This document shows positions 6,070-59,442 of a stretch of DNA of 64,000 nt, piece by piece; positions within the stretch are counted from its first letter, which is position 1, and every line of letters starts with the position of its first letter. The notes under the pieces were generated by a model that saw only the letters and a program-made list of their open reading frames with translations, made no database searches and was not told the origin of the DNA. The position numbers and the translations under genes were made by a program. The stretch comes from Octopus vulgaris (lineage: Eukaryota). Location: positions 49,414,001 through 49,478,000 of the forward strand of contig OX597825.1 in the NCBI GenBank assembly GCA_951406725.2. Reading direction: 5' to 3'.

Positions 6070-6115
6070 AAACAGGCAGGAGAGAAGGGAGACAAGAGAG
6101 AAGGTGCGGGAGAGA

Positions 6116-6155
<40 letters not shown>

Positions 6156-6279
6156 TGTGGGTAGAGATGTTTTCTATTCTTACACGAAGGCTTATTACTG
6201 CCAACAAATTCAAACGAGTTTTTGTGGTGGTTCACCATGTTAATATTATTTACTAATATCAAGACAGTTGGATAGACAG

Positions 6280-7385: not shown

Positions 7386-7389
7386 AATG

Positions 7390-9950
7390 GAGCGATAAAA
7401 AAAGAATCCTACAAGGAAGCTGAATGGGTAGGGAGAGAAAAAGAAAGAAAGACTGATATTGAAGAACAAAAATGGAACGATATAGCAATGCAGAAACTAA
7501 CTGATTCGCTATCTAAAACTCATAAGTGGAACCTCCTGGACATGATAAAATCCCAAACTTCTGGCTTAATATCCTCTCATATTCGCACAGTAAATTAATG
7601 GAATGCTTTTCTAATATCATTAGAAACCCCGAAAAGACTCCAAGCTGGCTATAGTTAGGGATAACCTGAGCGACACAAGAAATCACAAATCTGCAAGGCG
7701 ATCACATGTTTGACCACCATGTACAAAACACACATGTCCATCCTCACTGAAAGGATGTACCAATTTCTCGATGAAGACAATATTCTTGCTCTTGAACAAA
7801 AAGGGTGCAAAAGGAACTCATGCAGCTGCAAAGGTCAGCAATTAAAAAATACCTATTTCTTTACTGCCCACAAGGGGCTAAACACAGAGAGGACAAACAA
7901 GGGCAAACAAACGGATTAAGACGATTATATCGACCCCAGTGCGTAACTGGTACTTATTTAATCGACCCCGAAAGGATGAAAGGCAAAGTCGACCTCGGCG
8001 GAATTTGAACTCAGAACGTTGCGACAGACGAAATACCGCAAAGCATTTCGCCGGGCGTGATAACGTTTCTGCCAGCTCGCAGCCTTAAAATTAAAAATAC
8101 CGTATGATACACGAAAATTGCTCATCGAAAACCGTAATCTCAGTACAGCATGGATTGACTATCGTAAAGCATTTGAAATTTTTCTTCATAGCCAGATCTT
8201 AAATGCATTAATTATATACAAGATCGTTCTCTCTGGTAAAAGGAAAAGGACAGGTGAACTCAAAATTGTTTCTCAATCACGAGAAATTCTCGTATTTATC
8301 AGAGAACATCAAAATAGACCGTAGAATAGTCCAGGGTGATTTAATTTCCCCTCTCCTGTTCTGTCTTTCTCTCATTCCCTTGTCATATGAGCTTAATATA
8401 ACAAATCATGCTTACAAAATGTTTGACAAGATCGTCTCACACTTGCTCTACACGAATGATCTGAAATTATATGCAGAAGTTGACAAGGGTCTGAAAAGGA
8501 TACTAATAACTGAAACAATTCAGCGATGATATAAATATGGAATTCGGACTTGATAAATGTGCAAAAGCGTTGTTCAAACGTGATAAACTGGCAGCAAATG
8601 CAACAACCTAACTTGATGATGATATATGTATCACGGGTCTGGATCAAAAGTATCTTGGGAAACTTTCACTGAACTATATTGAATATTTTTCCAAAGACGT
8701 GTCAGAATGGCCCTGAATACTGGGCTGAACTCCCAGAGTAGACGTGTAGCTATGAAATCCATGGTTGTACCAATTGTCTATGATAGCCTTAATGTCATCA
8801 ATTAGAATCTGAATGAACTCCAGCGGATCAATATAGAGACCAGGAAACTGCTGACACTAAACAGGATGCACCACCAAAACCCAAACGTCCACAGACTCTA
8901 GCTTCCGGGAAAGGAAGGTTGTACAGGCCTAATCATACTTGGAACGTCCTATAGAACGACCACAAAAGGACTTTAGTGTACGTCAAAAGTAACACCGATT
9001 GGATGATACAGCTGGTAATGCAACATGAACATAGTAAAAAATTTCATTCAATCTCAAAGAAGGTATATAAATACACACGAGAGCTTAACCTCCCTGATTA
9101 TGATGAGGATAAGGAGGACCCGTCAGCCACTAAGGCGGTAAGAAGCGTAAAACAAAAGCCAAACAGGAAATCTTGAAGATAGTATCGAGACTGTGGCAAA
9201 AAAAAACCCCTTTGCATGGCGAAGCTGATGTAGCGACTGAGTGTTGGTTTGAAAACCAAAACAGAAGAGTCTTCTCATTCGGAACTATCAAGCTAATGCC
9301 ATGCAAAATGGGGTAGACACAAAGTGTACACATTGCAGCGACAAACTGGAGGGTATTGACAACATTGTTACCAGTTCTTCAGTCCTTGCACCAACAGAAT
9401 GTAAAACCAGGCATGATAAAGTTGGCCAATACTTGCAGTGGAGTGTGTACCGTTACTATGATATCACGCACTCTAAGAACTACTATGAACACCATCCAAA
9501 GACAGTAAACGAGAGAACGAATATTACTATCATATGGGATTATGGGATGCATAAGGACAAGCAAATAAATGTTAACAGACAAGACATCGCCATCATAAAT
9601 CTAAAGCATAAAACATGCATGTTAATTGATATGACAGTGCCTACTGAGAGAAATATCTCAGTAAATGTATTTGAAAAATTCTCGAAATATGAGAAGCATT
9701 TGAGATATCTAGGACATGGCAATTAAAAGCCAAAATCATCTCTATTGTTGTAGGCGCCCTGGGAATGATCAAGAAAGGTACTGGAAAATGTTTTGAGCAG
9801 ATTCTTGGGAAACTAACAATCTATGAGACTCAAATAATTTTGTTGACATCAACAGCCCACATTCTCATGAAGTTTCTAATACATAGGTGCCTTAGGTCTC
9901 TGTTTAAGACCCGGTCGGAAGATGAAATAAAATGTAAATCAATTGGAAAA
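7390..9950 (+). mobile_element. R4/Dong-clade non-LTR retrotransposon, 5'-truncated and degenerate
   Basis: RT motifs (EQKGCKR, AWIDYRKAFE, QGDLISPLLFCLSLIPLS, HLLYTNDLKLY), then CTHC...RHDKV and the RLE block IWDY...NRQDI...LIDMTVP...EKFSKY; ends in (TAA)n at 9951-10003. Confidence 0.9.
7854..8085 (-). mobile_element. SINE family B inserted into the Dong LINE, with target-site duplication
   Basis: Minus strand has A-box TGGCAGAAACG, B-box GAGTTCAAATTCC and core GTCGACTTTGCCTTTCATCCTTTCGGGGTCGA. Flanked by AATTAAAAAATACC (7840-7853) and AATTAAAAATACC (8089-8101). Confidence 0.9.
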
Positions 9951-10003
9951 TAATAATAATAATAATAACAACAACGACAACAATAATAATAATAATAATA
10001 ATA

Positions 10004-10212
10004 ATGGTTTTTAAATTTGGCACAAGGCTAGCTGTTTCATAGGAGGGGCTAAGTGGATCAGAATGACCTCAATACTCAACTGGTACTTATTTTATTGAAT
10101 CCGAAAATGAACGGTAAAGTCGACGCCAGCGACAGTCGAACTCTTAAAGGTGGACGAAATCCTGCTAGGTATTTTGCACAGTATGCTAACGATTCTGTCA
10201 GTTCACTTCCTT
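10004..10212 (-). mobile_element. SINE family B, degenerate
   Basis: TTTGGCACAAGGC tail, ACTGGTACTTATTT and AAAGTCGAC core blocks. Confidence 0.7.
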
Positions 10213-11519
10213 CATCATGGTTCCAAATTTTGGCGCATGTCGAGCAAGGCAAACAACAACAACAACAACAACAGTTACCATTACAGCAATGATGCTGTAT
10301 TAACCTCTGCCATAAAGACTGTATTCGGATATATGAGTATATATGTAAATGATTGGTTGTATACTCCTGCGAAGAGAGAAAAGTCTAAATAATTTTCTCG
10401 TTGCCTTGCAACTGAGAGAAGAGATAGACGAAAGTATTATGGGTATTTTTGGAGCTTTTCACTTTGACTACACTTAACTTTCTACAAACTGTTCTTTGGA
10501 ATAAGTATCACCTAGGCTTTATCCATTCAGCTTGGATTTCGGACTAAGACGAATAACAAGTATAATTACGTATGCATTTTGCAAGCCTTAATGAATTATA
10601 TTTCGAAATGTTTAAGAGAAACACAGAGTATTTTCTTTCATAATATAAAAATGAATTTGCTAGTACTAAGATTTCATAGAGTAGATCTAACGACTAGCAT
10701 TGTTTACGAAGGTACAGCAGACAACGACATTAGAGAATTAGAGAATTTAACGATGATAGAATGGTAACCGACTCTAATGCAGGCAACTAACGAGTGTTCT
10801 GCAAACTTCCACTTCTGTTAATATTCCCATATGTAGGTATAGTTTGAGAAGGAGTTCTGTATTACGGGCCTAATCATTTATCAATAGAGATATTTCCCTT
10901 TGGGATAAATATATAATCGTAAAACGTCGAGATATCAACTCTTGACTCGGAAAAGAATATCGATTAAAAAAATGTCATCGAACAAAAAAAATGAAATTCT
11001 ACAGTATATTGATAATCTATTAAACGTCAATATGTTAATCTAATAACGTATTGGGGTGCATTAAGTGTTTTCGTTGGCACTCTTAATTCATGAAGTAAAG
11101 GAAGTTTATTTTTGTTTAGGTACTGCGCATCGTTAACTAATCAAAAGGAAAACTCATTGCAAGTTTTTTTTTTTAGGATTGTGGTTATAATTAAAAAAGT
11201 TTCGGCAAAGATCCCAATCCAGGATTAGAAGTCTTCCTATGTAGAATTTCCCACATAATGAATAAAGACAAACAGCAAAGCTGGTTATTTTTAGGGCACT
11301 ACGATATGTTACATTTGTGTTTTATACCATTTACAGCTACAAATCTTATATTTGTCATAAAGATCTACTCTTGGAAAGATATAATTTCGTTTACTATTTG
11401 AACTCTTTCACTAAACAGGATCATCATATTTTTCTCTGGTCAAACTCTACTGCACCTCTTATTCATAATATTGTTTTATTTCTTGTAATGATACGATATT
11501 ATGAATGAAAAGAACGTGT

Positions 11520-11805
11520 CTTATTGGCAATGGTATTCAGATTACGATCATAAGGTCATTATTTTGATTCTTGACGACGCATTGTACCCTTAAGTTGGAA
11601 CATTTATTTCGTGTTGCTCCAGTCCACTCAGCTAGGAAGAACGAGTTGCACTTTTGGTTCAATGGGCCAGTCTCGTGATAGATAGTGTGTCACTGTGAAT
11701 GTCTCTGAGAACTACATTAGTGGTATGCGTGTCTATGGAGTGTTCAGCTATGGAGTTGATCGAGTCTTCTGGAACACTTGTCATCGAAACCGATGGAGAG
11801 CCAGT
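11520..11805 (+). mobile_element. Old tRNA-derived SINE whose tail matches the 37949-38334 SINE
   Basis: GTTGCTCCAGTCCACTCAGCT central block; the tail TGTGTCAC..GAATGTCTCTGAGAACTAC...GTCATCGAAACCGATGGAG aligns with the reverse complement of 37955-38100. Confidence 0.6.
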
Positions 11806-13557
11806 TCACATCTGCAATAGTTTACAATTTAAACCAAAACCTTAAATTTCTATGAAAGAATTATACTGTATTCCTTAATATATACTTAACTGAATGCGGA
11901 GTCGTTAGAAATAGACACAATATACCCTAGCAGGAACAATATATCAGATACATTGGTTCTTGTGTTGTTGTTAGTTGTTCAAAGATCTGAGCTATTCATT
12001 TCCTCATACTATTCAATGACAAAGAAATTAAAATTTCTCGGGAATTGAAATAATAGGTTTTATTCATATAAACTAGAACGTATAAATTAGAATAAAACTA
12101 CAAAGGTAAGAAATCAAGATTCATTTATATAAAGTGAATCATTTTAATTCCAATAATGAATTTGCAACTAATTTAACATTCACATCCGTTAACTCTAACA
12201 ATAAAACAATTTGTACAATATAGGAATTGAGGGAAATATATTTGTTTGTTATAGACATCTATACTAGTACTGAGTCGTTCATTTATTAGCGTGGATGGAT
12301 ATTGTCGATTGAATCGACTCTCATCTTAGTATCGATACTGTGTTATGCCAATAAACTTTTCATGAATCTTAGTGATATGAATAATTAAGTTAACTCTGGT
12401 AGGTTTTGAACTCTGAATGTAGAGGACCTTTAATAAATGTTGTATATTTACTACAATATATATGTTTATTGTTGCTACACGTCATCTCCTTCAACAACAA
12501 AGAGGAAACGTAGAATACAATAAATCACAATGAAATGAGTACAAAGTGGAATAAGGGCATCGATCAGATTAAGAAAGAATTCACCTGATTAAACTGATCG
12601 CAGTGTTACTAGCGTACATTTTATGGAAACTATAAAAATAAATAAGATGCTCAAACCAAAAATTATTCAAAATTTGAAAAATGTTTCTACTGCTGTATTG
12701 TCCGATGTTCAGATGCAAATTGCGGCTTTCAGGTTATGCAGAAAGTAGTACAAAGAGCGAAAGTTGAAATCACGCGTCATTAATATGCTGCGAGATTTAC
12801 ATTGCTGGATTTATGAATCCCGAAGCATTCTAGGAAGCAGAGCAGGGAACTTCAGCTTATCTCTAAAACACAATTATACAGATGGCTTTGTTGAATATGG
12901 TCGCTGATTTAAATTAAGCATTTGAAAATAACGCTGTTTTCATCTGTGTATCTTGATAGCCAATAACATACACACATACGCAAACATATATACAAACGCA
13001 CGTATCTTCATAAATATATTCGTGCTTAAATATGTATACATGTATATAGAGATTTATGCAGTTTTATGAATTGAGTATAACATCATTAGAATTACTTCAA
13101 TGACCTCTACGAAATATTGTTGGTAAGCGACTTTGGTAAAATATATTATTGTAATATTATTGTAATATATTATTGTAACAGCGGAGAAGTGATTCGTTTA
13201 GATGCTGTGTAATAATCTGGTATTTTACCAATAATTTTGAGTGAAACAGTGTGATATTATCAATAAAATTTCATCTATAATCACACCTATCGCAAGTTTG
13301 GTGACTTATTTTCTTTATTGCGCAATCAGACATATTATCTTTGTTGCAAGAAGTGGGGCCTAGAATTTTATATTAGAATTCTATTTTCATTAGTTTTAGA
13401 ATCAGGTCAGTAGTAACACCACAATAACGATTATCAATAACATTAAGGTTTCACCAAAACCCTTTCAATAATTATTATCACTGTCATACCGGTTGCTGCC
13501 ATCATCAAAAGAACCTGCCCAGTCTATGGTTTCACTCCCTTGGCTATTTGTCGAATG

Positions 13558-13576
13558 TTTATTATTATTATTATTT

Positions 13577-13650
<74 letters not shown>

Positions 13651-13672
13651 TGTATTATTATCATTATTATTT

Positions 13673-13757
<85 letters not shown>

Positions 13758-13772
13758 CATTATTATTATTAT
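13558..13772. repeat. (TAT)n microsatellite, the (TAA)n tail/target of the adjacent minus-strand Dong LINE
   Basis: Seen directly; abuts the LINE 3' end. Confidence 0.95.
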
Positions 13773-16700
13773 TGCCTTTGCACAGTTTCTAACGGTGTCA
13801 GCTCTTCGCCTCTAACTTTTCGAGCGCCTTCCGGAGTATTCGAGCGGTTCCAAACAGTGCCGTTTTCTGCAAGTGCTCCATCCCTATTGTAGCCCCTAAT
13901 TGTTCCAAGTGCTTCTCAAGCTGTTTACTCACTGTTCCCAGGACTCCGACAATTATTGGTACTACTACCACCTTTTTTATCGACCACAACTGCTTAACCT
14001 CCCAAGCTGACCTGTCATATCTATCAAATTTTCTATCTTCCTTATCGCATGCATTATTATCAGCTGGGCATGCTATATCTATGATCTAGTATATTCTTTC
14101 TGAATTAAGACTATGTCTAGCTTCCTATTCTGTATCTAATAAAATCCCACAGGATCTTTGCATTAATATTTTCGATGGTGACTTTGGGTTTGTGGCTCTA
14201 TCAATTGTTTTTCTGTGTGAAATCCATACTTGTTGCACAGTGTCCAATAGACAGGCCTGGCTATATTGTCGTAACGTCTCTTATATTCCTTCTGGTTTCA
14301 CCATTTTTTTCCACAAATTCTGCACTGAACACTTTCTGATGTGCTGTCTATTCTGTATTTTATGTAGTTTTTCCTTGGTGCTTGCTCTTGGGCAGCACAA
14401 ATTACACCCACCATTCCGGTTTAAAATCAATTTTAATAATCCACAGCCATCTTTTTCTCTGTCTGTCTTATCTTCAATATCCCTATGGAATTGTCCATGC
14501 ATTCTTTTCTTTAGGCACCTATTTTCAGTTTAATTCGTTTTCAATTGCTTGTACAGTGCTTTATCTTTGCAATCTTTCATCCAACACATACCTGACCTTC
14601 TTACTTCTAATAATAGCGGTCTGTGGAACAGTTTACATACATACTCTGTTGTTTTCTTCTGCTCTAATGCTGTGTTCTCATACAATAAATCCACTTCCCT
14701 CTCTTTGTCACATTTTGAGTGGAGTGACTCATATCTAAATAGCAACTTCTTTGTCTTTCTTTCTAAGCTGCTTCATTCGTCTACTGTCCATGCGATTACC
14801 CCTGCTGCATATGTAAAGAGTGAAACCGCCCAGGTGTTGATAACTTCAATCTCATTTCGTCTCTCAACTTCAACTTAAGGATCAATCTCAGTCTGCGCAA
14901 GCACTCCACCTTAAATTTTTCTGTCATTTCTTTCTCCGTGAATTCATCCATTTCCAAAATCACCACGTACTTACAGCTCGTGCCTTCTATCTGCTTCATA
15001 ACCTTCCCTCTCCGACGGTATCGTTAGCCCGTTCATACATTTGATTATGCCTCTCTTCAAGACTAACACACAACACTTTCTCAGTCCGAACTCCATTCTG
15101 ATATCAGCACTGAAAGTATACACCGTATCAAGGAGGGAACTTTATCATAAAGATTGAAGGCATCAATGAATAACAAATGGTTGACTTTTTATTGGTAGCT
15201 TTTGAATACATACCCAGCTTTTCCTTTCCTCAGAATCTGTGTTAGTGGTCAGTACAAAGATAAGTGGTGACAGGCAGTGGGGACATGCCCCTCTTGATTT
15301 CTACTACCGCTTAACTTCTTCCGTATGTCGTCAGGTCCATACTTCTAAGCAATCGCTCATCACTCGATGCAATAGCAAGAATGTGGGATTATATCGTACG
15401 TCTTACGATAGTCGATCCATGGCATGGCTAAGTTACTTTTCTTCCTCTTGCAGTCTTTAAGTAAAATTTTATCTACTAGTTGTTGATCCTTGGTACCTCT
15501 GCACTTACGATTGCAACGCTTCTGCTCGTATGGCAGGACTATATTTTTGTTCAGATGTTCGTACTTTGACTCTGCGACTATTCCAGTCAATAATCTGCAC
15601 GTAAGTGGCAAGCAGGATATCGGACTGTAATTGTCTACTGTATTGTCTTTTCCGATGTTTTTCAAGCATAGTAATGTCCTACACAATGTCAACCACTCTG
15701 GTGTTACTTGGTCGGCATTTAACAAGGTGTTGAGTTGCGCAGCTATTCGTGTATGACATTCACTAGATATTTTGATCCAGTAGCCTTGAGCTCCATCTTG
15801 TCCCGAGGCCTTCTAGTTGCTCACTCTTTGATGAAAACCTTCATTTCCCTAACTGAAACGACTGGTTCTGCCAGTTTTGGACGGACTGCTGTTTGTTTCA
15901 GTTCTTGCAAACTTCAGCATCCTTCTTGTGCTCTTTGTTTTTGCTCCAGATGTCACTCCAAAACCTCTGACTTTCATTGTTATCTGGTATCAACTTTTCA
16001 AATGAACACTTTCCATCTATTTCTTTATAGAATCTTTTCTAAACTAACCTGAATATACTATACTGCTGGTAACCCTTCATTCTTTGGTCATATGTTTCCA
16101 TCTTGCTTTCTTTGCAACGAGGCGTTGTTTCAGTTCCTCCATTACCACATTCATGCCCTTTCTTTCAATGTTATACTTCCTTTTCAGCGACCTGTATTTT
16201 CGTTCGCTTTTAAGCTCCCATTTTTCTTTTCGGTCTAACACAGAAATGTCCTTCGAGAACATTCTAACCTTGCCTGTATTCTTCCTTCCCACCATGAATA
16301 TTTCCTTTTGCCACTCCCATTATATTTCTTTTTCATGACATCAACACCCACGTTTTCTGCTAAAGCAATACTTGTTGCCTTAATCAAATTATTTGTTTCT
16401 GTGGTGTTGTTTGTTATGATGTATTTCAGAATTCCATTGAGATTTTTCGTATCTTGGTTCAATTTCCACCGATCAACATTTTTAAGGTTGCAAATAATGT
16501 CACTATAGTTCTCTTGTAGTCTTGCCTCTATTCTGTCGTAGATTGCCTTTTGTTCATGAAATTAAATTTATTAGTAAGATCTGTATTATCATCGTTATCT
16601 TTGCTGCTATTTTCCAATACCAGTCTTTTGATAGCTTCAAACTCTACTTCTGTGAACCAACGATTTTTTTCTTGTTGCTCAAGCTTGATCAAATAGTTTA

Positions 16701-19790: not shown

Positions 19791-19843
<53 letters not shown>

Positions 19844-19845
<2 letters not shown>

Positions 19846-20237
19846 TCTTTTACCCTTTTACTCTTTTTACCTGTTTCAGTCATTTGACTGCGGCCATGCT
19901 GGAGCACCGCCTTTTAATCGAGCAATTCGACCCCAGGACTTATTCTTTTGCAAGCCCAGTACTTTGCCGAACCGCTAAGTAACGGGGACATAGACACACC
20001 AGCATTGGTTGTCAAGCAATGCTAGGGGGACAAACACAGACACACAAACACACACATATATATATATACATATATACGACAGGCTTCTTTCAGTTTCCGT
20101 CTACCAAATCCACTCACAAGGCATTGGTCGGCCCGGGACTATAGCAGAAGACACTTGCCCAAGATGCCACGCAGTGGGACTGAATCCGGAACCATGTGGT
20201 TGGTTAGCAAGCTACTTACCACACAGCCACTCCTGCG

Positions 20238-20239
<2 letters not shown>
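19844..20239 (-). mobile_element. SINE family A, full-length copy in (TA)n
   Basis: Minus-strand head GGCGCAGGAGTGGCTGTGTGG...TCCGGATTCAGTCCC (A/B boxes), CTTGGGCAAGTGTC core, internal microsatellite, (GAGTAAAA)-like tail. Confidence 0.9.
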
Positions 20240-20274
<35 letters not shown>

Positions 20275-22068
20275 ATAAATATATGTATATATATATATAC
20301 ATACATATGCACTTAAATATCATCAGCTGATATCAGGGATGCCCAACACATGAAGTACAAGCAATCCAACTGAATAACGTTTCATATGTACCTTCTTCTT
20401 TATACCGATAAGTCAGTGCTAGTTGAAGATAACCAAAACTGTGTTGGATTAACTTAGGGTTCTCAGTCAACTATTATAGAAATACCAAATGCTACTCTGG
20501 AAAGCTTGAGTACTCATCATTTAAGAAGAATCAACCAATCTGTAAAGTCCTTTATAGTGAATTAAGTTTGTAGCTTTTATTATGTGCTGTATTGTTTTAC
20601 TCCGTATTCTGCTATTAGTTATCTCACTTATCTATCGTCAAATTCATATTACCCTTTGTCCCAAGGAATCTCAAGGAATCTCACAGATGATTTCTTATTC
20701 ACAATTATTTGGTGGCTAATAAGACTGATATGCTACTGTATGTAGCATTATTTAGTAAGATATAAAATTAGCTCATGGCAGAAACGACAATATCACGCCT
20801 TTGCAATCTCTAGATAAACGCAATTTTGAATTTCTCTGCTAATATGCTGTGCCACATGACCCAAATGTTTGCAAACGAGTGGATTCTGCTTACAAGGACC
20901 ATGGTGAATAAATATAGATAAATATGTGTTAGCCAAGTCGTCTAGATGTAAAAGTTTTGAGCCATAGGAAGGAAACTCTATAGTATTTAACGTTCTTCAA
21001 CGTTCTAAACACAAATACTATGCAGGTGTTCACATTGCTGTCCTCTGTATCTCTTCTTTCCATTAACTATGTAGATATCAGTAAGATATCTGGGTTGATT
21101 CTTCGATTAAGACGCATTTGTTGCTTTTATTCCCAAACTAAACGTGATTGACATGTTTGAAATAATTGTGGAAGTGTATGAGGTGTTGGAAATGACATAT
21201 CAGAGCTGTTATGGCCATTTTGCTGAGGTTACATATCTTCGCAAGTTATTGACATTTAGAATTTTATCTTATTAATTCAAATCCTGCGAATACAAAACAG
21301 AGAGCAGGAAAGACATGTATAAACATTCACTTTGATAGACTAGCGACGTATGCAGGACCTCCTCTGTCCTTCCTCAAGTGCAATTAAATTGGATATTAGC
21401 ATCTTAGCATCATGTTATAACAGAATTAAACATGCACACACATACACGCACGCACGTTTATATATGTATATCTGATTATACATGTCTTTGAACAAGTAAG
21501 AATGAATATATCATCTGAAATTTGACATGCAACTCAATGAGGTAAGGAACGAACGATTCCTCTACATATTTCAATTAATTATTTGAAAACCAATCTGAAG
21601 AAATAGGCGACAAATAATTGTCAGTTTCCCAGTTTTCTCTTTTGTATGAGGTCCTTGAAAGTTATGTATGAATGCAATGACATTATTTCATTTTTGTTTC
21701 TACTGAATACTTCTGATAAACTCTGTCCCAGCAAATACATCTCATGAATATGTATCAGCTTAACTGGACAATATCACTAGGCACATTATTAAAATTTGTA
21801 ATGAAATTTTGACACTATGAATAATCAAAAACAGTGACCACATGGAGAGAGGAGCAGTAGAAATGTCTTCGCAATTGCTCTCCATGCGAAGGTGACTGGC
21901 GTGTAAATACTCTTAATAAAACCTCCCAGTATAATAAAGCAATAATGAATCAGACCATGGCAAAAGAAAGGAATGGTTACAAATTTAAAACACTGGATTA
22001 TGTATGTATGTATGCATGTATGTATGTATGTATGTAAGTATGTATGTATGTATGTATGTATGTATGTA

Positions 22069-22099
<31 letters not shown>

Positions 22100-22778
22100 C
22101 AGTTCTGAATACCAACCATATCACTGGCCTTCAGGTAACATGACATTTGAAACGGTCGCTCTTTCTCTATTTCTATCTTTGATGTGTAGATAAAAGAAAA
22201 CCTGAAGTGGGGAATTAATAGATGTAATTGACGACGGAGTTAATAGATGTTAGGGCTTTGACATAAGACTATCTAAAGGGCCTTCCTTTTTACTGCAGCA
22301 CGAGTACTTTTGCTGGATTTGGAAGATTGAATCTTATTATTGTTCAGACCAGCAAAAAGCTAAAGAACAAATGAGGGAAGTAAAGAAAAGGAAACATAGT
22401 AGGAGGGAGAGTCAGCTAATAATATTATATCAAATTTTATTGGATTATTTAAAAAATATATATATAACTTGCCCACCCCAATTTATTTTCTTCAATTTCC
22501 TTATTCCACCGCTTCCGCGGTCTTCTTTTTCTTCTTTATAAGTTGTTTTCTTCTTGAAGTTTTCCTTTTGCTACCGATATAACTAGGATGGATAGATATA
22601 TATATTTATTATATCATAGTTACCAGTCAACGCAGAGTTTTATCCTTAGCTAGCTGTTCTAACCAGCCGAACTAAAGGTGAAACTTAGTGCAAACTCGAT
22701 ACTGATACAATAGATACCTACATACTTATGTAGGTATCTATGTATATGTATACATACATAAACATTATATATATTCTT

Positions 22779-22975
22779 TTATACTTTTACATGTTTCAGT
22801 CACTTGACGGCGGCCATGCTAGGGCACCGCCTTTAGCCGAGCAAATTTACTTATTCTTTAGAAGCTTCGTACTTATTCTATCAGTCAATTTTGCCGAACC
22901 GCTAAGTCACGGGGGACGTAAACACACCAGTAACGGTTGTCAAGCGATGTTTAGGAGACAAACACAGACACACAA
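22779..22975 (-). mobile_element. SINE family A, 3' half
   Basis: TGTTTCAGTCA..GCGGCCATGCT...GCCGAACCGCTAAG...GGTTGTCAAGCGATG blocks. Confidence 0.8.
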
Positions 22976-23024
22976 ACATATACACACACACATACACACA
23001 CACATATATCTATGTATATCTATG

Positions 23025-23090
<66 letters not shown>

Positions 23091-23169
23091 TATATAATAA
23101 ATTTAGGATGAATACTTGATAAGTGTAAGCACCTGTATACGCCAGCTAGTAGCAGAGGTGAGAGGGTAA

Positions 23170-27560: not shown

Positions 27561-27714
27561 AATGCTTTTCGTTATCCTTTAACGAAATAATTTAAAACTT
27601 ATTTCTAACTTTGGCGGAAGAAACGTCATTTCTACGTAAAACTTCTCTTTCGTTGTTCGAAATTGTACCCATTTCTGTGGTGGTGGTGGTGGTGATATAT
27701 TCCTGGCACAGTTG

Positions 27715-28430
27715 ATTGTTGCTAGAAATGTTTCGTGCTTCCTTGATCGTGTTGTCTCCATGTGCAGTCTTCTTGCGCCTACAGAGTATTTCAACAGGCA
27801 TGATGGAGCTGCACAATATATTCACAGCGTAATTTGCAAAAGCCTGGACTTGCCCATGATAAAACCTTGTGAGAACCCAAACCACCCCCAGTCCTTGAAA
27901 ATGATCACATCTCACTCCTCTGGAATTTCACCATACAAACTGACAGAAAGATAGATGCAAATATGCCAGACATCATATTGAAAGATTGCAGACAAAATCC
28001 TGCCCCCTCATTGATATGACTATACCAATCGATATAAACGTATCTGTCAAGACCTACCAAAAACTGAGCAAAATGTGGAACCCGAATACTAAAACAATAC
28101 ATGTCATAGGTGCCTTAGGAATCAATGAAAAGGGGGCTGATTGCTACCTAGCTCAGATACCAGGAAGCCCCCAAATGTCAGAAATTAAAAAGATTGTGCT
28201 CATGGGAACTGCCCATATCCTACGTAAAATACTGTCTATGCAATCTCAAATTTTAAAGCAAATACATAATTTTCTTATGGTTTCTTAAACATTCTCTAGA
28301 ACAACACTATGTACAAAACCAAATATATGGCAACCTAGGCTTAACACCGACAGTAATTTCTAACTTGTGTTTTCTTGAGGTGAGTCATGGAGTCAACTTA
28401 TACAAATGCAAGACAATTGTCACACATAAA
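27715..28430 (+). mobile_element. R4/Dong LINE 3' fragment (RLE domain plus 3' UTR)
   Basis: LLAPTEYFNRHD, LIDMTIPIDINVSVKTYQKLSK, VIGALG, VLMGTAHILRKILS; followed by (TAA)n. Confidence 0.88.
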
Positions 28431-28565: not shown

Positions 28566-28601
<36 letters not shown>

Positions 28602-28631
28602 GTGATGATGATAATGGTGATGATGATAATG

Positions 28632-28720
<89 letters not shown>

Positions 28721-28724
28721 AAGA
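28430..28724. repeat. Compound (TAA)/(TGA)/(GAA) microsatellite
   Basis: Seen directly. Confidence 0.95.
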
Positions 28725-28730
28725 GGAAAC

Positions 28731-29281
28731 ACTTTGATGCAGTGCCAGGCATTGGTCCTCTTGTTCTGTAATCTTAACTGATTGGAAGTGCTATCATGTT
28801 CATGTTTTGTTTGGTATGGAATGTGGGCTACGGCAAATATTCTGTCCAGTACCACAGGATTGCTTGTCAGTTGCTTTCTGTTAACCAGTTGATCATGTTC
28901 CTTGATGGCTGACGATATGTATGTCTCTGATCATGAGTAGAAGTAGCGAGGGAGCATCATAGCTATGTGTTGAGAGGAATTATTTTGTGTCTGATTAATT
29001 TATCTTTTGAAGCATGAGTGTTTCGTTCGACATCCTTAAACAACTTCTATAAAAGGAGCTTTTGAGTGGATGGGTTACTCGACATGAAGTGGACTCTAAC
29101 TGGGTCTCACGTGCAATATTAAACGCTTTTAATCTTGATATGAGCTCAACATGTGGTGCACATTTTGTTGAGATTCAAGTGCCTTGTGTAATCTTATCAG
29201 ACAGGTAGTCATCATATATATACTTGGTTTCGTGCACTTTACTCTAGTGTCACTTTGAAGGCATGCACTGCTCTTTCATTC
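28731..29281 (+). mobile_element. ~550-bp TAA-associated non-coding element, copy A (oldest)
   Basis: Colinear with 29773-30308 and with the reverse complement of 31788-32320. Confidence 0.8.
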
Positions 29282-29351
<70 letters not shown>

Positions 29352-29374
29352 GTAATAATAATAATAATAATAAA

Positions 29375-29760
29375 AAAATGCTTTCTAATTGATGTATCAA
29401 TACCGGCAGATGACAACGTGTCTCTAAAAGAAATGGAGAAACTCTCAAAATACAAAGACCTGGAAATAGAGGTAACTAGAATGTGGAATCTGAAAACAGA
29501 AACAATTCCTATCATAGTAGGTGCATTAGGAATGATAAAAAAAATATTCAGACAAATACATAACAAAAACACCAGGACTTACAAACACATATAACATACA
29601 GAAAATTGAACTACTAGGCACTGCACACATCCTACGCAGAACACTTTCCATACAATAACCATCAGAGCATCACAACAAATCACAGCACATAACCAAGGCA
29701 CACAGAGCTGCGCTCGGTAGTGAAGTGAAAGCACGCAATAAAAATAAAACTACTGAAGAA
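29375..29760 (+). mobile_element. R4/Dong LINE 3' fragment inside (TAA)n
   Basis: KCFLIDVSIPADDNVSLKEMEKLSKYKDLEIEVTRMWNLKTETIPIIVGALG...LLGTAHILRRTLS; same family as 61945-64000. Confidence 0.9.
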
Positions 29761-29772
29761 TAATAATAATAA

Positions 29773-30308
29773 GCAGTGGCTCTCATGGCTTCTGATCTTA
29801 ACTGATTGGATGTGTTATCATGTACATTGTTTTGTCTTGATATAAAAGATGGGCTACAGCAAACATTCTGCTCAATACCACAGATTTGCTTGTCAGTTGT
29901 TTGACCCTAAACAGTTGAGCATGTCCCTTGGTGGCTGACGATATGTGCATCTATGATCACGAGCAGAAGTAGTGCGGGAGCATCATAGCCATGTGTTGAG
30001 AGGGATTCTTTGGGGTTTGAATAATTCACCTCTGGAAACATGGGTGTTTCGTTCAACATCCTTAAACAACCCTTATTCAGGGCCCTTTCGAGTGGGATGG
30101 GTTACTCAACCTGAAGAAAATTCTAACTCGGCCCCACCTGTTAGGTCATGTGCTGTTTATCTTCATATGAGATCACCATGTCGCGCACATATGGTTGTGA
30201 TGCATGTGCCTAGTGTACACTTATCAGACGGGTAGTCATGATGGGTATACTGGGCTTCGTATATTTTACCCCAGTGTCACTTTGATGGCATGCACTGCTC
30301 TCTCACTC
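29773..30308 (+). mobile_element. ~550-bp TAA-associated element, copy B (about 20 bp shorter at its 5' end)
   Basis: Flanked by (TAA)n on both sides; ends GCATGCACTGCTCTCTCACTC-AATAAT. Confidence 0.85.
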
Positions 30309-30329
30309 AATAATAATAATAACATTTAC

Positions 30330-30396
<67 letters not shown>

Positions 30397-31687: not shown

Positions 31688-31709
31688 CAGAAAGTCATCA
31701 TCATCATCA

Positions 31710-31787
<78 letters not shown>

Positions 31788-31788
<1 letters not shown>

Positions 31789-32320
31789 GTGAGAGAGCAG
31801 TGCATGCCATCAAAGTGGCACTGGGGTAAAATATGCGATGCCCAGTATACCCATCATGTCTACCCGTCTGATAAGGGTACACTAGGCGCATGCACCACAA
31901 CCATATATGCGCGACATGGTGATCTCATATCAAGATAAACAGCACATGACCTTACGGGTGGGGCCCAGTTAGAATTTTTTTCCCGCTCAAAAGGTCCCTG
32001 AATATGGGTTGTTTAAGGATGTTGAACGAACCATCCATGTTTCCAAAGGTGAATTATTCAAACATCCCCAAAGAATCCCTCTCAACACATGGTTATGATG
32101 CTCCCGCACCTCGTTATGAGAGGTGTACATATCGTCAGCCACAAAGAGGCATGCTCAACTGTTTATGTTCAAACAACTGACAAGCAAATCTGTTGTATTG
32201 AGCAGAATGTTTGCTGTAGCCCATCTTTTATACCAAGACAAAACAATGTACATGATGACACTTCCAATCAGTTAAGATCAGCAGCCATGGGAGCCACTGC
32301 CTGGTTCTGCATCAGGGCAT
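31788..32320 (-). mobile_element. ~550-bp TAA-associated element, copy C (inverted)
   Basis: Reverse complement of copy B, flanked on both sides by (TTA)n (31714-31786, 32321-32463). Confidence 0.85.
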
Positions 32321-32338
32321 TTATTATTATTATTATTA

Positions 32339-32464
<126 letters not shown>

Positions 32465-32700: not shown

Positions 32701-33530
32701 ATCATTCGCTGTTAATTTCTTGAGATCCTCAAGATTTCGTTTTGATAATTGTCAACATTTTTCAAGTTTTCATAATGTAATTAACAACAATAACAACAAC
32801 AATAATAATAACAGCAATGATTATTTTTGTTTGGGATATATCTGAAGCAGAGAATCTTAATTGACTGTTTGATAGGTCTTTCCCTACAGAGGTTAGATAA
32901 AATAGTCGATTACAAAAATGTATTTTCATTTAAATTCTACTGTCTGACGTTGAGGTAAAAATAATGTATTCGTCTCTGATCTGCTCCCCTGAAAGATTAT
33001 AATAAGCACAGCAAAACAAAAAGAAAGAAAAATTCAAACAAGGAATTTTAAAAATAGTAAAATCATGCATATTAATGAGCACAGAAACAATATGACAGAA
33101 ATTAAAGAAATAATATTAAGTAGGAAGAAATACATAATAGCCACACATTTAACAGTAACAACTGTTTGCATGCACATCTTTCCATTGAAAGAAACGGACG
33201 AAGTGGAACACATCTAAGTCCTTTCAGTAAAGAAAATGGAAACGACAAAAGTACCAACAACAAATTTTGGAGATTGTTGTTCCCAGAGTCATGGTAGGAA
33301 CAATTCGTAAGACAACAAATAAGATTGCCCCGTCCCATTTATCTGTTTCAAGCATGCAGCTTAAAACTCCTCCCAATCACAGCCTGTGAAAACAAAGAGA
33401 ATTACCCTCAGGAAAACTAGTACAGTTCTCATCGACCTGTTTAATGCAGAATTCCATATTGACTTAATAGGATAAGGACGAGATGAGACTGATAATGTTA
33501 AACAGACTTCCTCCATTTAATATATATATA

Positions 33531-34133
33531 TAAGCAATACATTCAAATACTGAGATTTGAAATCAGATGTCACTACTGTTCATATCATCTGTGGATAAAT
33601 TTTAAAATTGATGATATCACCAGCAGTGACATAGGTTAAATAGCATTAAATAGCATTAAATAGCTATAAATAGCATTAAATAGCTATAAATCATAAATTT
33701 GCACGAAGCGTAAAGATGCTTAACAAGCATCCACCTGCTAGAAATAAAAGCTAAAATCTTAATTTTATCCACCGTGCCGCACCAAGGTAACAGAGAAAAG
33801 CAGAATGCGAGGAAAACAGAAAGGATTAAATCATTTAACAGCAGAAATATAAATATTATGCAATTAGGGATATCCACAAACCAGGTTTCGGCTTTTGGGT
33901 ATTTAAACCCTGAGCCCCGTCAGTGTGGTCTACCGGGTAATAATCCACAACTGTCACGTTAAACTCTGACTGTGCAACTAGTTTTGTTTTGCGCCAAAAA
34001 CAGAGTACATGGTTCATAAAGTTTTATAAGCAAAACATTCAAACACTGAAATTTGAAATCAGATATCACTACTGTTCATATCATATCTGTGGATACATTT
34101 TAAAATTGATGATATCACCAGCAGTGACATAGG
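33531..34133 (-). mobile_element. Retrozyme-like / Penelope-pLTR-like unit with ~105-bp terminal direct repeats (period ~497 bp)
   Basis: 33531-33634 closely matches 34028-34133 (TAAGCAA.ACATTCAAA...GATATCACCAGCAGTGACATAGG); TA-rich flanks; internal hammerhead; no ORF. Confidence 0.7.
33874..33928 (-). ncRNA. Type I hammerhead ribozyme (one core deviation, A9 to G)
   Basis: Minus strand: CCACA-CTGACGG-GGCT ca GGGT ttaaat ACCC aaa AGCC-GAAA-CC t GG-TT-TGTGG. All three stems pair. Confidence 0.8.
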
Positions 34134-35044
34134 GGTATTGCATATACTATATATATTTTCCACGAAAAAAGCGCAAGAAAAAAATGAAGGAACCTATGCG
34201 CTACGAAGGGGAACCAGCTCTAGAACTGCATGACTTAAAAGTTACAGCCATTAAAAAAATGTATCTCCAATAAAACACTTATACTCAAGGAATACTTAAA
34301 AGAAGTGCGGATCGAGAAGGAAATAGGATCACATTTTCAATAGCATAGTAACGATAAAACACTAGTTCATATTTCAGATAGATTTACGAAGCATTAACTG
34401 TCAACGATGTGGAAGACATGGCTCCTCATTTGCCAAATAGAACACAAGAACTTATCGCGAAATATGCTTCAGATATTCCAGCTTTGAAAAATATAGCAGG
34501 CTAACACACCGGAGGCTTGAATAGGAATGTGGTTACCCTGATCAATGCAAGAGGATATTTCGTTTTGTATATAAACATATTGTCTTAGGTATGGTGAGCT
34601 TTAATCCTACGTTTTAAAATTTATTATTGCGTAAATTACTATTATATAAATGTGTGTTTCACCGAAGAAGAAAATTGAGCTCCCAGGGATTGACATTGTC
34701 AAAAAAGATTTTCATGAAGTAGAGGGCCAACGAAATGAGTATTATGTATATATTGAAGTAGAACTATAACTATGTTACTCCTTTCAAATACAAAATAAAA
34801 ACGTATAAGTACTAGAAATTGTATAATTATGGGCGGTATATTTGAAATGATATCGTTATGAGCCTTGCATTTATATAGCCATCACTAAATGCGCTATATT
34901 TAGGTCTTACTCCCTATGTTATGCATATAAACCCCTCCTGTTGTGACTTCGCAGTTCATCTATGTATGCTATGTAAAATAATTACCAATTAGATTTCAGG
35001 GCTTTTCAGCTAATTCTAGTCCACTGTCGTTGGATTATTTACAT

Positions 35045-40573: not shown

Positions 40574-40934
40574 ATGTGTGTATCATGTTGAGTCGAGCAA
40601 CTCGACCCCGGGACTTATTGTTTGTAAGCCCAGTACTTATTCTATCGGTCTCTGTTGCCGAACCGCTAAGTGACGGGGACGTAAACACACCAGCATCGGC
40701 TGTCAAGCAATGCTAGGAGTACAAACACAGACACACAAACACATACACATACATACATATACATATATATACGAGATGCTTCTTTCAGTTTCCGTCTACC
40801 AAATCCACTCACAAGGCATTGGTCGGCGCGGGGCTATAGCAGAAGACACTTGCCCAAGATGCCACGCAGTGGGACTGAACCCGGAACCATGTGGTTACTT
40901 AGCAAGCTACTTACCACTCAGCCACTCCTGCGCC
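40431..40934 (-). mobile_element. SINE family A, full length
   Basis: Near-identical to 19844-20239, with an extra microsatellite in the tail. Confidence 0.9.
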
Positions 40935-41234
40935 TACCTATACATATATATATATGTATATAATATTAAATATAGCGTAAAGATTTATATTCTTCACCTG
41001 TGGCCAGATTGAGTAAAACTGCCCATAGATATATATATACGCACACTCACCCACACCCACATCCACACACACAAATATATGCATGTATACGCATGCTTAA
41101 ACCTGTGCATACGCATGTGTATATATATATATATACATATATATATTTATGTATCTGTGTCTACATCTATAATATATATCTCTGTCAACCGTCCCTCTCT
41201 TTCCCCCCTCTCTGTCTGTCTATGCATCTATCTA

Positions 41235-41750: not shown

Positions 41751-42351
41751 CCATACATATACAGAGACATACACGCAGACATACAATCCTACAGAATCTC
41801 GCCAGCGACACTCATTTCGGTACTTTCAGGTAGATATAGTACGATTTGTTTATGAATTGAAGTCGTTTAACTTTGCTAAAAGTTCATTTAGTATTTCTTC
41901 GATACACTGTGTCCCATGTGTATGTGTGTGTTGTGTGTGTTGTGTGTGTTGTGTGTGTGTGCGTGTATGCGTGTGTGTGCGTGTGCGTGCGTGTGTGTGT
42001 TTGTGTGTATATAGGCTTGCGCGTGTGTATGTATCTTCAGTTGTGTATTTGTATGTGGTAAATACACGCACACACATACAGATATTTGCATATTGATACA
42101 CATTACACCCTAATCACTGCAAACCTTGATAATATTTATTACATGTCCAGAAATTTGATGTTTTCTCTCGTCTCTATGTAACATCTTAGCTGACCGAAAA
42201 CCGTATCGTTGGATCTTAATGTGCCATATGCTTTGATAATTGTCTCCGCTAGTTTCATAAAAGTATCAATTTAAATCAAATAAAGAAATTATGGTAATAT
42301 CTTCTGTATAGTATTGGAATGTTGAGTATATATATATATATATATATAAAC

Positions 42352-42594
42352 CTTTACTTATTTATTTGTCTCAGTGACTACGGCCATGCAAGAGCAGCAC
42401 CTTTAGTGGTAGAAATCGATCCCAGGACTCATTCTTTGTAAGCCTAGTACTTATACTATCGACTTATTTTAGCGAACCGCTAAATTACGGGGACGTAAAG
42501 ACACCAGCATCGGTTGTCAAATGATGGTGGAGGGAGAAACACAGACACTCAAAAACACACACGCACACACATATATGTATGTATGTGCATATGA

Positions 42595-42627
<33 letters not shown>

Positions 42628-42666
42628 TATATATACATATATATATATACATATATACACACACAC

Positions 42667-42730
<64 letters not shown>

Positions 42731-42899
42731 TATACACGATGGACTTCATTCAGTTTCCGTCCATCAAACCCACTCACAAGGATTTGGTTGGCCCGAGGTT
42801 ATAGTAGAAGACAGTTGCACAAGGGGCCACGCAGTGTGGCTAAGCCCAGAACCATTTGGTTGGGAAGCAGGTTACTTACCGCACAGCCACGACTGCGCC
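42352..42899 (-). mobile_element. SINE family A with an expanded internal microsatellite
   Basis: Both family A halves flank a ~190-bp TA/CA tract. Confidence 0.85.
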
Positions 42900-42950
42900 T
42901 ATATAAATATAGGATACATACATATATATGTGTGTATGTATGTATATATG

Positions 42951-42986
<36 letters not shown>

Positions 42987-48726: not shown

Positions 48727-49324
48727 CTTTTTTCTTGTTTCAGTCATTTGACTACTGCCATACTGGAGCACCACCTTTAATCGAACAAATCAACCCTAGG
48801 ACTTATTCTTTGCAAGACTAGTACTTATTCAATCGGTCACTAATACTGAACCGCTAAGTTACAGGGACGTAAACACACCAACATCGGTGGTGAAGTGATG
48901 GTGGGAGGACAAAGACACACGGACACAAATTCATATATGCACGTATACATACACAAATATGTATGTATATATGTGTGTATGTATGTATGTATGTATGTAT
49001 GCATGCATGCATGTATATATATATATGTGGAGGCGCAATGGCCAAGTGGTTAGGGCAGCGGACTCGCGGTCGTAGGATCGCAGTTTTGATTCCCAGACCG
49101 GGCGTTGTGAGTGTTTATTGAGCGAAAACACCTAAAAGCTCCACGAGGCTCCGGTAAGGAGGTGGTGATCCCTGCTGTACTCTTTCACCACTATTTCTCC
49201 CAATCTTTATTATGTTGGCCTGCTCGCTTAGCCAGCGGGGTGGCGTTATCCAAAGGCTAAAACAATGCGAACGCATTGTGACCAGCGATGTGTAACAACA
49301 TCTGATGGTCTGGTCGGTCACGGT

Positions 49325-49368
<44 letters not shown>

Positions 49369-49530
49369 GACGGGCTTCTTTCAGTTTCCATCTAACAAAT
49401 CCACTTACAAGGCTTTGGTCAGCCCCAGGTTATAGTAGAATACACTTGCCCAAGATGCAAGGCAGTGGGACTGAACTCGGAACCATGTGGTTGGGAAGCA
49501 AACGTCTTGGCACACAGTCACTCCTGCGCC
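48727..49530 (-). mobile_element. SINE family A hosting a nested SINE in its internal (TA)n
   Basis: 3' half at 48727-48930 and 5' half at 49365-49530. Confidence 0.85.
49029..49331 (+). mobile_element. SINE family C variant (same head and core as 37949-38334, different tail)
   Basis: GGAGGCGCAATGGCCAAGTGGTTAGGGCAGCGGACTCGCGG...GAGCGAAAACACCTAAAAGCTCCACGAGGCTCCGG...CCCTGCTGTACTCTTTCACCAC. Confidence 0.88.
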
Positions 49531-49903
49531 TATATATTTTTATATGCATGTGTGTGCGTATGTCTGTGTGTGTGTATGTATATTTATATGAATATGTGTG
49601 TGTGCTTGCCTGTATATGTATATCTATGTATGTGTCTTTGTGTTTGTGTTTGTCTACCATAACCTCTTTACAACCAGTGCTGGTTTGCATACGTTCCCGT
49701 AATTTAACAACTCGGCAAGAGAGGGCGAGAGAGTATGTACTTGTTGTAAAATGCCTTCAAGGATATTGGCATTGATTGGACACCGAGTCAATATAGAAAA
49801 CCATGACCATACAGGAAGGAATTTAAGCTCAAAAGACATGGTTGGGTCATGAATGTTAAGACTTCCTGACCGGTGATTTAACGATTTCATTAATTTATTT
49901 AAC

Positions 49904-58468: not shown

Positions 58469-59214
58469 TTAGCTCCTCCATTCTCTCTTCCTTGACATAG
58501 CCTCCTCAAAATCAGCTCTCTGTTCTTCTTCCTGTCTGTCTTTCTTCTCCTTTATCACGCCTTCTTGCGTTTCCATTTCTATATTTTCCACTATTTCTGG
58601 GCACCTTCTTCTAATGTGACCTCCTTTGCCACATTTATAGCACTTTGGAGGTGTTCCTTCCAACACTATATCCAGCTTGTATTCGTTTGGCAGTTCCAGT
58701 GTCTCCGGTATGATATCATATACTCTCTGACTTGCTGTGAAAACCAGCTCGAAACCATACCCCCAATAATTTATTTGTTGGGTTCTGGTTATCATAACTA
58801 CCTCTACGTCTTCCTTTTTACCCATTCCGACTCTATTTTTGGCAGGATCCTACTCACCCTAATCCTCGTTGGACACCTACCCAGATGATTGGGAAAGAGC
58901 ATCCAATTTTCTCCAGTTAACGTCTTATTGGCGTATTTCCTTGCTGCCTCCTCCGATACAAATGTGATCTCTACAGACGCGTATGTCTTGCCTCTTGTGA
59001 AAAAGGACACATCTTTTAATTCCTTCAAATACTCTTCCACCTCCTCCTTTTTTGCGCTCTCTATTCTTTTATTTTTCCTTGAAAACGAGCTATATTCCTC
59101 CAACTTAATTTTCATTTTCGCCTTTTCCTCCTCTGATGGGGTGAACTTTACGTTTGGCCCCTCCTTCTGTAACATCTCTAGATATTTTCCAAATTTCTCA
59201 GCCATGTCCTTCAT
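58469..59214 (-). mobile_element. L1/Tx1-like ORF1 (gag-like, CCHC zinc knuckle), one frameshift
   Basis: Overlapping ORFs 58804-59214 and 58469-58825; RRM-like VEITFVSEEAA...TRIRVSRILP and zinc knuckle PPKCYKCGKGGHIRRRCP. Confidence 0.75.
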
Positions 59215-59442
59215 TCCAGCGCATTTCGTATTGCTTCTGCAGGCCTGGGACGACGGAAGCCCAACTCCCTGTCGCTGTCACATATGTCTTCATTTTCTCC
59301 ATCTCATTACATTGCATTGTAATTTTATTCATTTCACATTCATCTTTTCATGTGCTTTTTGTTCCTGCATGTCTGTGTATGTCCTTTCTGTGTTTAGGCC
59401 TTGTGTCAGTAATAAAGAGTTAACCTCTAACGGAACAATTAT

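Follow-up and report, generated by a model that had tools for sequence, protein, structure and literature searches.

A decayed partial-tandem copy of an ORF-less, hammerhead-bearing repeat family in Octopus vulgaris, with likeness to non-LTR retrozymes and Penelope-like elements

Retroelements with small hammerhead ribozymes have been described from several animals. Among the closest to the element reported here, which was found in a 64,000-nt stretch of the Octopus vulgaris genome (the window), are the non-LTR retrozymes of metazoans (Cervera and de la Pena 2020, PMC7229834). Both have a short non-coding unit, a GC content below 50%, many copies, a type I hammerhead with a weak stem III, no LTR, PBS or PPT, and co-occurrence with Penelope-like elements. 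The retrozymes of that paper include a mollusc case, Mytilus, with units of 350-390 bp, and circular RNAs were demonstrated for coral, mussel and axolotl retrozymes by northern blot (PMC7229834). As described there, every unit of a retrozyme's tandem array bears a ribozyme, and circles are produced, whereas the octopus element is seen as a 1.24-mer with one ribozyme. Its unit is also longer (496 nt versus about 170-400 nt), and its stem II has an internal loop and a second stem, unlike those of the retrozymes in PMC7229834.

The hammerheads that Penelope-like elements carry in their pseudo-LTRs (Cervera and de la Pena 2014, PMC4209133) are also of type I, and share with the octopus motif a 5-bp helix I, a long helix II and a G10.1-C11.1 pair. 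A palindromic helix III, U17 (in many of the examples listed in that paper), predicted dimer activity and a partial tandem layout are likewise common to both. The octopus unit differs in having no ORF and in that a short helix III is present. Moreover, the consensus given in PMC4209133 has an extra base between positions 9 and 10.1, which a few of the motifs listed there lack; the octopus motif is without it. The alignment in that paper includes Lottia and Crassostrea, with no cephalopod among its sequences. A model of cleavage, ligation and overrunning reverse transcription was also proposed there. Penelope-like elements have been described as truncated at 5', inserted as partial tandems and targeted to (TA)n (Craig et al. 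2021, PMC8557442). The octopus element resembles non-autonomous Chlamys elements such as MRC1 and the (TA)n-targeting Naiad/Neptune elements of that paper in its LTR-mimicking 5'-truncated partial tandems, in the (TA)n bias and in the existence of non-coding derivatives; however, the Naiads and most Chlamys elements presented there are without canonical hammerheads.

A recent preprint (Li, Clavereau and Pollet, bioRxiv, 10.64898/2026.07.22.740005) derives the animal retrozymes, as non-autonomous elements, from Penelope pseudo-LTRs, an overall reading similar to ours. Its units measure 51-972 bp, and dispersed monomers ('solo retrozymes') are common. For Xenopus, eight of nine predicted dimers stayed uncleaved in vitro and one was cleaved. 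An "active" retrozyme in the sense of the preprint requires two consecutive ribozyme-bearing units, which are absent in the present copy. The available portion of the preprint gives no fixed 3' end mapped relative to the cut site, unlike the analysis below, and its sample of 35 genomes consists of 31 vertebrates, three insects and one coral, without a mollusc.

The octopus element consists of two direct repeats, the left one at 33529-33635 (107 nt) and the right one at 34025-34133 (109 nt). Their starts are 496 bp apart (498 after a 2-nt indel), and the copies differ by five substitutions (5/107 sites) and this one indel. A preliminary description, made from the letters of the window, had given repeats of about 105 bp, 497 bp apart and starting at 33531; the start and the spacing were off by 1-2 nt at most. 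The complete non-coding unit (33529-34024, minus strand, 496 nt, 35% GC) was defined by the repeat spacing, its depth relative to the flank and the lack of a Pfam match. According to the repeat alignment, the left repeat (minus strand) is the 3'-terminal segment of this unit, and the right repeat (34025-34133, minus strand) is a 5'-truncated partial copy of the preceding unit, i.e. a pseudo-LTR. Judged by its letters, the right partial copy may extend on to about 34142; six of the nine letters following 34133 agree with the continuation in the family, a weak match. Between the repeats, a 10-bp tandem expansion at 33636-33691 was detected by TRF, where most family contigs have other letters; it had been overlooked previously.

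The flanks are TA-rich, as stated in the preliminary description. A (TA)n tract at 33520-33532, which overlaps the last TATA of the element, lies at the 3' end and is likely the insertion target, as indicated by the sequence and by the contig ends of other copies. The TA-rich tract at the 5' junction is located at 34142-34156 in the sequence. The left and right flanks share a 16-nt match (88%), and a putative target duplication at 34142-34156 is indistinguishable from microsatellite sequence. The previous finding that there is no ORF was also confirmed: the longest stop-to-stop frame has 87 aa, and none of the five frames of at least 55 aa matches Pfam. The reverse transcriptase and GIY-YIG ORF of an autonomous Penelope-like element is thus absent from the unit (frames of at most 87 aa, no Pfam match). 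LTR, PBS or PPT-type features were not found in the 496-nt unit (35% GC), and no tRNA-like head was found in the element. The element occurs once within the window, which has 35% GC and contains abundant microsatellites and decayed retroelements. Several DnaA-box-like words in the element were dismissed because the window is eukaryotic.

A type I hammerhead motif was located by a descriptor and by folding at 33874-33928 on the minus strand, with the predicted cut at 33879/33878 after GUU. Stem I is formed by CCACA (33928-33924) and TGTGG (33878-33874), and stem II by GGCT (33916-33913) and AGCC (33893-33890); an internal loop and a second 4-bp stem (GGGT at 33910-33907, ACCC at 33900-33897) lengthen stem II. 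The core includes CTGACG(G) at 33923-33917 and GAAA at 33889-33886. Stem III is palindromic (33886-33880), with U16.1 at 33880 and U17 at 33879. The definition of a hammerhead used here comprises a CUGANGA...GAAA...UH core, three stems and an open end in stem I; all of these parts are present in this copy, except that core position 9 (33917, minus strand) is G instead of A. The preliminary account of the motif (strand, stems, GAAA, cleavage site and the A9 to G change at 33917) was reproduced exactly.

None of the 3000 dinucleotide shuffles of the 607-nt element, scanned on both strands, matched the hammerhead descriptor, which allowed one core mismatch and required at least 5 for stem I, at least 4 for stem II and at least 2 for stem III. 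With looser stems (stem I at least 4, stem II at least 3) there were three matches across the 64-kb window, namely this motif and two weaker ones; when a palindromic stem III was also required, this motif alone was left. Covariance models, which the preliminary description had put forward as a check, stayed below threshold: no hammerhead in the window reached the Rfam gathering score, and the best local match was Hammerhead_3 with 16.8 bits (cut-off 48.5, E 0.22). This blank is weak evidence, because Rfam also missed three phage type I motifs whose stems I and II are those of the element and whose stem III is firm. These phage motifs come from a viral scan, in which three related phage loci showed a clean type I hammerhead with stems I and II of the element and no likeness elsewhere (L005 23-59; L006 1001-1037 and 533-588; L007 1001-1037 and 1770-1841). 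L006 and L007 contain a second hammerhead about 0.5-0.8 kb away, which is of type III in L006 (E 1.2e-6) and a weak match in L007. On the sequence evidence, the stem identity between phage and element is read as convergence. The hammerhead pattern gave 0 matches in the prokaryote genomes scanned. A metagenome scan with a 22-nt probe gave four loci, all of one unrelated sequence with 23 nt in common, which were taken as chance.

Parts of the stretch were contained in 20 of the 24 listed public sequencing runs, with six organism labels; none contained half or more. Four runs were aligned to 33100-34600: X1 (organism A) and X4 (organism C) were taken as DNA, X15 (organism D) and X18 (organism A) as RNA. 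The small shares in the other runs were left aside as evidence. The plain flank bins had a depth of 13-21 in X1 and X4, and the bins within 33508-34068 reached 547-6598 in X1 and 1558-15850 in X4. The contigs of the two DNA runs cover the unit at about 30-1000 times flank depth, which identifies it as a repeat family. Relative to the flank, the depth was about 460-fold (X1) and 850-fold (X4) at the terminal hairpin, about 67-fold and 120-fold at core position 9, and 32-36-fold and 56-69-fold at the interior-to-repeat junction; summed contig depth is not copy number, and these ratios should be taken as tens to hundreds. The multi-copy nature expected in the preliminary description is borne out at this scale in both DNA runs.

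Many of the aligned contigs were less than 95% alike (270 of 390 in X1 and 232 of 332 in X4), which suggests that the present copy is an old or side-branch member. Contigs of X1 cross both insertion junctions, and one X4 contig crosses the right junction; the insertion is likely common to the two differently labelled organisms, whose flanks differ by about 1%. The X4 contig has 39 nt inserted at 34189/34190, in the right flank, which the window lacks. The repeat divergence (5/107) would correspond to about 6 million years (range 2-15), provided that the octopus rate of 0.0036 given in PMC13282606 is applicable.

At position 33917, A9 accounts for 988 of 1007 depth in X1 (23 contigs, 98%) and for 1817 of 2279 in X4 (13 contigs, 80%), and it is also present in the sole covering contig of X15 and of X18. 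Whether other copies have A at core position 9 had been asked beforehand; most family depth does, and the present copy is therefore a mutant. The remaining depth of X4 at this position, about 20%, is possibly a subfamily. Among the rows listed, 33917 is the one majority difference in the 64 nt of 33865-33928, compared with about 6-10 per 100 nt on either side, which is only a hint of constraint. An upstream TGTGG (33945-33949, minus strand) competes for stem I in the MFE fold of this copy; at 33948 the family majority has another letter (784 of 831 depth in X1 and 776 of 806 in X4, more than 94% in both). A type III hammerhead using this upstream TGTGG was rejected, since it requires a gap at U16.1 and a base lacking in the family majority. 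Folding gave no support for the majority letter at 33929 as an extension of stem I. A second short palindrome (TACC-C-GGTA, 33940-33931, minus strand), which resembles stem III, was also observed a little upstream of stem I; by pairing with stem III, it could influence how dimers form.

Two variants of the unit were also seen. The joint 33916 to 33539 was found in one contig each of X1 and X4 at single-copy depth, where the 3' end is joined to a unit starting inside the ribozyme. It is a shorter variant (a 378-nt unit without the CUGA half) from another locus common to both organisms. In X4, the depth of the segment 33712-33762 is about 1000-fold that of the flank and eightfold that of the ribozyme; a subfamily, short or diverged, having only the last 230 nt in common may exist.

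The depth declines towards the 5' end of the unit. At 33980 it is 0.21 (X1) and 0.11 (X4) of that of the terminal repeat, values which are biased by divergence, and at the interior-to-repeat junction it is 0.07 in both runs; 33712-33762 keeps 0.5-0.85. Divergence of this copy from the family lowers the depth, for example at 33763-33790 and 34006-34021; the polarity ratios are thus approximate, and both 5' truncation and differences between subfamilies contribute to the slope. In the 21 listed rows of loose ends, four contigs of X1, three of X4 and two of X15 exit at 33520-33523 into TA-rich unlike sequence. Loose ends at 33636 were also found among these rows (14 contigs in X1, 12 in X4 and two in X15); they do not mark an element end, because the contigs continue into one common sequence, replaced by the 10-bp tandem in this copy. 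The family looks anchored at one (TA)n-flanked end, 350 nt downstream of the predicted cut, and thins towards 5'. The random permutation of copies that the preliminary description anticipated is at odds with this common end in TA tracts and with the thinning. The depth asymmetry argues against two LTRs as well as random permutation, and agrees with copies that have one fixed 3' end and 5' ends that vary. Penelope derivatives consist of a full unit behind a 5'-truncated one and have a fixed 3' end; the locus shows this order of units, and the depth polarity and common TA-flanked end of the family fit the fixed 3' end. The 1.2-mer, read earlier as the signature of copying round a circle, is thus an ordinary partial tandem (pseudo-LTR) of the Penelope-like class, and is by itself no proof of a circle.

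The short-unit junction is covered at 0.50 (X1) and 0.52 (X4) of the depth at position 9, and contigs run from the interior into the repeat (for example, X1 piece 7 at 33985-34117 and X4 piece 30 at 33889-34110). These values indicate that many ribozyme copies are situated in the short unit and not behind an ORF. The preliminary description would have been given up if the unit were always attached to a coding Penelope ORF; about half of the ribozyme depth instead continues through the ORF-less unit into the end of the previous unit. There is no depth step at the cut site (33850: 1244 in X1 and 2151 in X4; 33881: 1398 and 2054), which suggests that the copied templates were uncut or re-joined. 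This copy has 1.24 units and one hammerhead; among the family contigs, which are short and of which no listed piece spans the stretch, none was seen to have two ribozymes. Joints that go back from 34064/34084 to 33725 were rejected as multimers, as they merely reflect the two repeat copies.

The predicted folding energies are in favour of the dimer action proposed in the preliminary description, on paper. Stem III is unfavourable by 2.6 kcal/mol in the monomer; whereas self-pairing of the palindrome gives -5.5. The double-hammerhead fold has -34.3 kcal/mol versus -25.0 kcal/mol for two monomer folds, so that the dimer is favoured by 9.3 kcal/mol. The hammerhead fold was never the minimum-energy fold in any context tried, with or without the majority letters, and its constrained probability was about 1e-4 or less. 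Folded as a circle, the unit of this copy had z -2.8, and 1 of 60 shuffles did equally well; after 20 of its letters were changed to those of the majority, z was -3.3 (0 of 60). For 33636-34133 in linear form, z was -1.57 (6 of 100 shuffles). A 21-bp interrupted hairpin near the 3' end of the unit (33567-33632, minus strand; z -4.28, 0 of 200 shuffles), which the preliminary description did not mention, lies inside the repeat and is the highest-depth part of the family. Much of the circular-fold signal likely traces to this hairpin in the models, and it is a candidate signal for the reverse transcriptase.

In the runs taken as RNA, 12 contigs of X15 and seven of X18 lie on the element, with none on the flanks. 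They were not taken as a sign of retrozyme RNA, since some continue into long unlike sequence, as expected of copies in host transcripts or DNA. The cut site is bridged by one X18 contig with at least 31 nt on each side; this fits uncut RNA, re-joined RNA or DNA equally. None of the listed runs that contain part of the stretch is on record as RNA, and the contigs give no strand, ends or level.

The preliminary description had also mentioned Penelope-like elements nearby, and a decayed Penelope-like remnant was recognized at about 1620-2560 (plus strand) by its ORF relatives and motifs, 31 kb from the element. For the ORF at 1790-2188, a search gave 181 relatives with E up to 0.001 and 47-53% identity to the best; the named relatives are from Mytilus and Pinctada. 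This upstream domain has no Pfam family. The same-frame stretch at about 2470-2560 is taken by us as the start of a Penelope GIY-YIG domain, for which Pfam gave no confirmation; the reverse transcriptase between the two seems to be missing. Two long Mytilus relatives of the ORF continue into GLKF and ADKG motifs, and GxKF/Y and DKG are Penelope traits (PMC8557442). The remnant shows no DNA similarity to the element and contains no hammerhead; likeness of the element to an autonomous Penelope-like family end was thus not found in the comparison with this remnant.

Other repeats of the window include two tandem reverse-transcriptase remnants (Pfam RVT_1) at 61118-61929 and 62925-63731, which are 74% alike; RVT_1 was matched by 2 of 132 frames tested (61375-61845 and 63468-63929). 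Further non-LTR remnants are situated near 8150-9720, 15050-15810, 27640-28290 and 60100-60370, and zinc knuckle frames at 58472-59277 (minus strand; Pfam zf-CCHC, E 2e-5) probably derive from a LINE ORF1. A repeat of 0.6-0.8 kb is present in three copies (28587-30396 and 31697-32462), which are 76-85% alike and lie beside (TAA)n, two of them mutually inverted; a further 400-bp piece matches 61938-62335. A SINE-like repeat, which resembles octopus SINEs, has many copies 70-90% alike (5713-6068, 19805-20298, 22742-23105, 40593-41089, 42326-42977 and 48729-49595).

On balance, we lean towards the view that the locus holds 1.24 units, now decayed, of an ORF-less family which has many copies and a type I hammerhead motif and is probably a retrozyme-like passenger of Penelope-like retrotransposons that moves via a circle. 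The family, the canonical core in most of its copies, the missing ORF, the head-to-tail junction and the common TA-flanked end are observed parts of this model. For the remaining steps, a source locus with two ribozymes (1.8 units, at least about 900 bp, i.e. 896 bp or more) would be transcribed on the minus strand; the two motifs would pair via their palindromic stems III, and their cleavage following GUU would set free a monomer (about 0.47-0.5 kb), which a host ligase would close into a circle. A Penelope reverse transcriptase/endonuclease would then nick (TA)n and prime at a fixed site 350 nt downstream of the cut, beside the strong hairpin. Copying would mostly stop short of one turn and sometimes overrun it, leaving 5'-truncated copies and partial tandems. 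The main rival is a non-autonomous Penelope-derived family copied from linear RNA without a circle, because Naiads form the same partial tandems without ribozymes. The element would then be an internally deleted Penelope, the ribozyme a passenger or a trimmer of the 5' end, and the tandems would come from read-through or template jumps. We regard this as rather unlikely, even though the fixed 3' end, 5' truncation, partial tandem and TA target are also known from coding Penelope-like elements, including the hammerhead-less Naiads, and non-autonomous Chlamys elements make pseudo-LTRs and head-to-tail copies (PMC8557442). Most of the family depth also lies 3' of the ribozyme. Copying from linear RNA sits less well with the core being intact in most depth of two differently labelled organisms, with the few majority differences at 33865-33928 among the listed rows (a weak point), and with a palindromic stem III which, in the predicted folds, fits use as a dimer.

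The other explanations are less probable still. The element could be the 3' end (pseudo-LTR) of a coding Penelope-like element, with the locus as a rare deletion product; this appears quite improbable. Hammerheads are standard in pseudo-LTRs (PMC4209133), the depth is far higher over the last 230 nt than in the 5' part, and 6% (X1) and 11% (X4) of the aligned contig material continues into unlike sequence. However, in both runs the junction of the short unit is covered at half of the depth of the ribozyme, about 30-70 times that of the flank. Among the 21 rows listed, no loose end that is well supported and lies upstream of the ribozyme indicates an ORF, and the metazoan Penelope consensus (PMC4209133) has an extra base between positions 9 and 10.1 which the motif lacks. 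It is highly improbable that a SINE-like or unclassified repeat acquired a local 107-bp duplication and has a chance or dead hammerhead-like motif, although Rfam stayed below threshold and the host genome is rich in local expansions, one of them inside this copy. The motif arose in 0 of 3000 shuffles, the family majority restores the single wrong core base, the head-to-tail junction is covered at many times flank depth in two runs, and a tRNA-like head is lacking. The least credible explanation is a miniature LTR element (a TRIM or plant-type LTR retrozyme) with two 107-bp LTRs. Two direct terminal repeats do flank a non-coding interior, and the family sequence after the repeat begins with TGG. 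Primer-binding sites begin with TGG. LTR retrozymes and TRIMs are defined by a type III ribozyme in both LTRs, a PBS, a PPT and a 4-bp target duplication; whereas the octopus element has one type I motif in its interior, outside the repeats, and asymmetric junction depth. The two junctions of the repeat differ about 7-12 fold in depth, TG...CA ends and a short target duplication were not seen, and the right boundary continues into conserved unit sequence instead of varied flanks.

On the best reading of these comparisons, the element would function in the way of metazoan non-LTR retrozymes, and its parts are arranged as in a non-autonomous Penelope derivative. The copy in the window is mutated and decayed and has a single ribozyme; together with the G at position 9 and the competing stem, this suggests that, whether the family is copied from a circle or from linear RNA, it likely cannot make the monomer, and it is likely dead. 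It is not classed as an active retrozyme, for which two consecutive ribozyme units and circles are required. The kind of element is already known from coral, mussel, amphibians and others. No report of a retrozyme-like element from cephalopods was found in the literature searched, Repbase, Dfam, the O. vulgaris repeat library of PMC13282606 and supplements being outside this search.

Tentatively, the family may represent an undescribed cephalopod retrozyme family common to several related species, which would form circular RNAs of about 0.5 kb via a dimeric hammerhead with an extra stem II hairpin, and whose hundreds of genomic copies would all begin at a single priming site, flanked by a hairpin and 350 nt away from the cut. 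In the literature consulted, as far as its available parts go, both the movement of animal retrozymes and the partial-tandem insertion of Penelope-like elements have been proposed, not demonstrated. A short ORF-less high-copy family with a fixed priming end apart from the cut would make both questions testable. If the reading is true, the family would provide a minimal natural substrate for defining the cis signal read by Penelope enzymes, and a direct test of whether pseudo-LTRs originate when a circle is copied for more than one turn. The range of retrozyme-like elements would also come to include the cephalopods.
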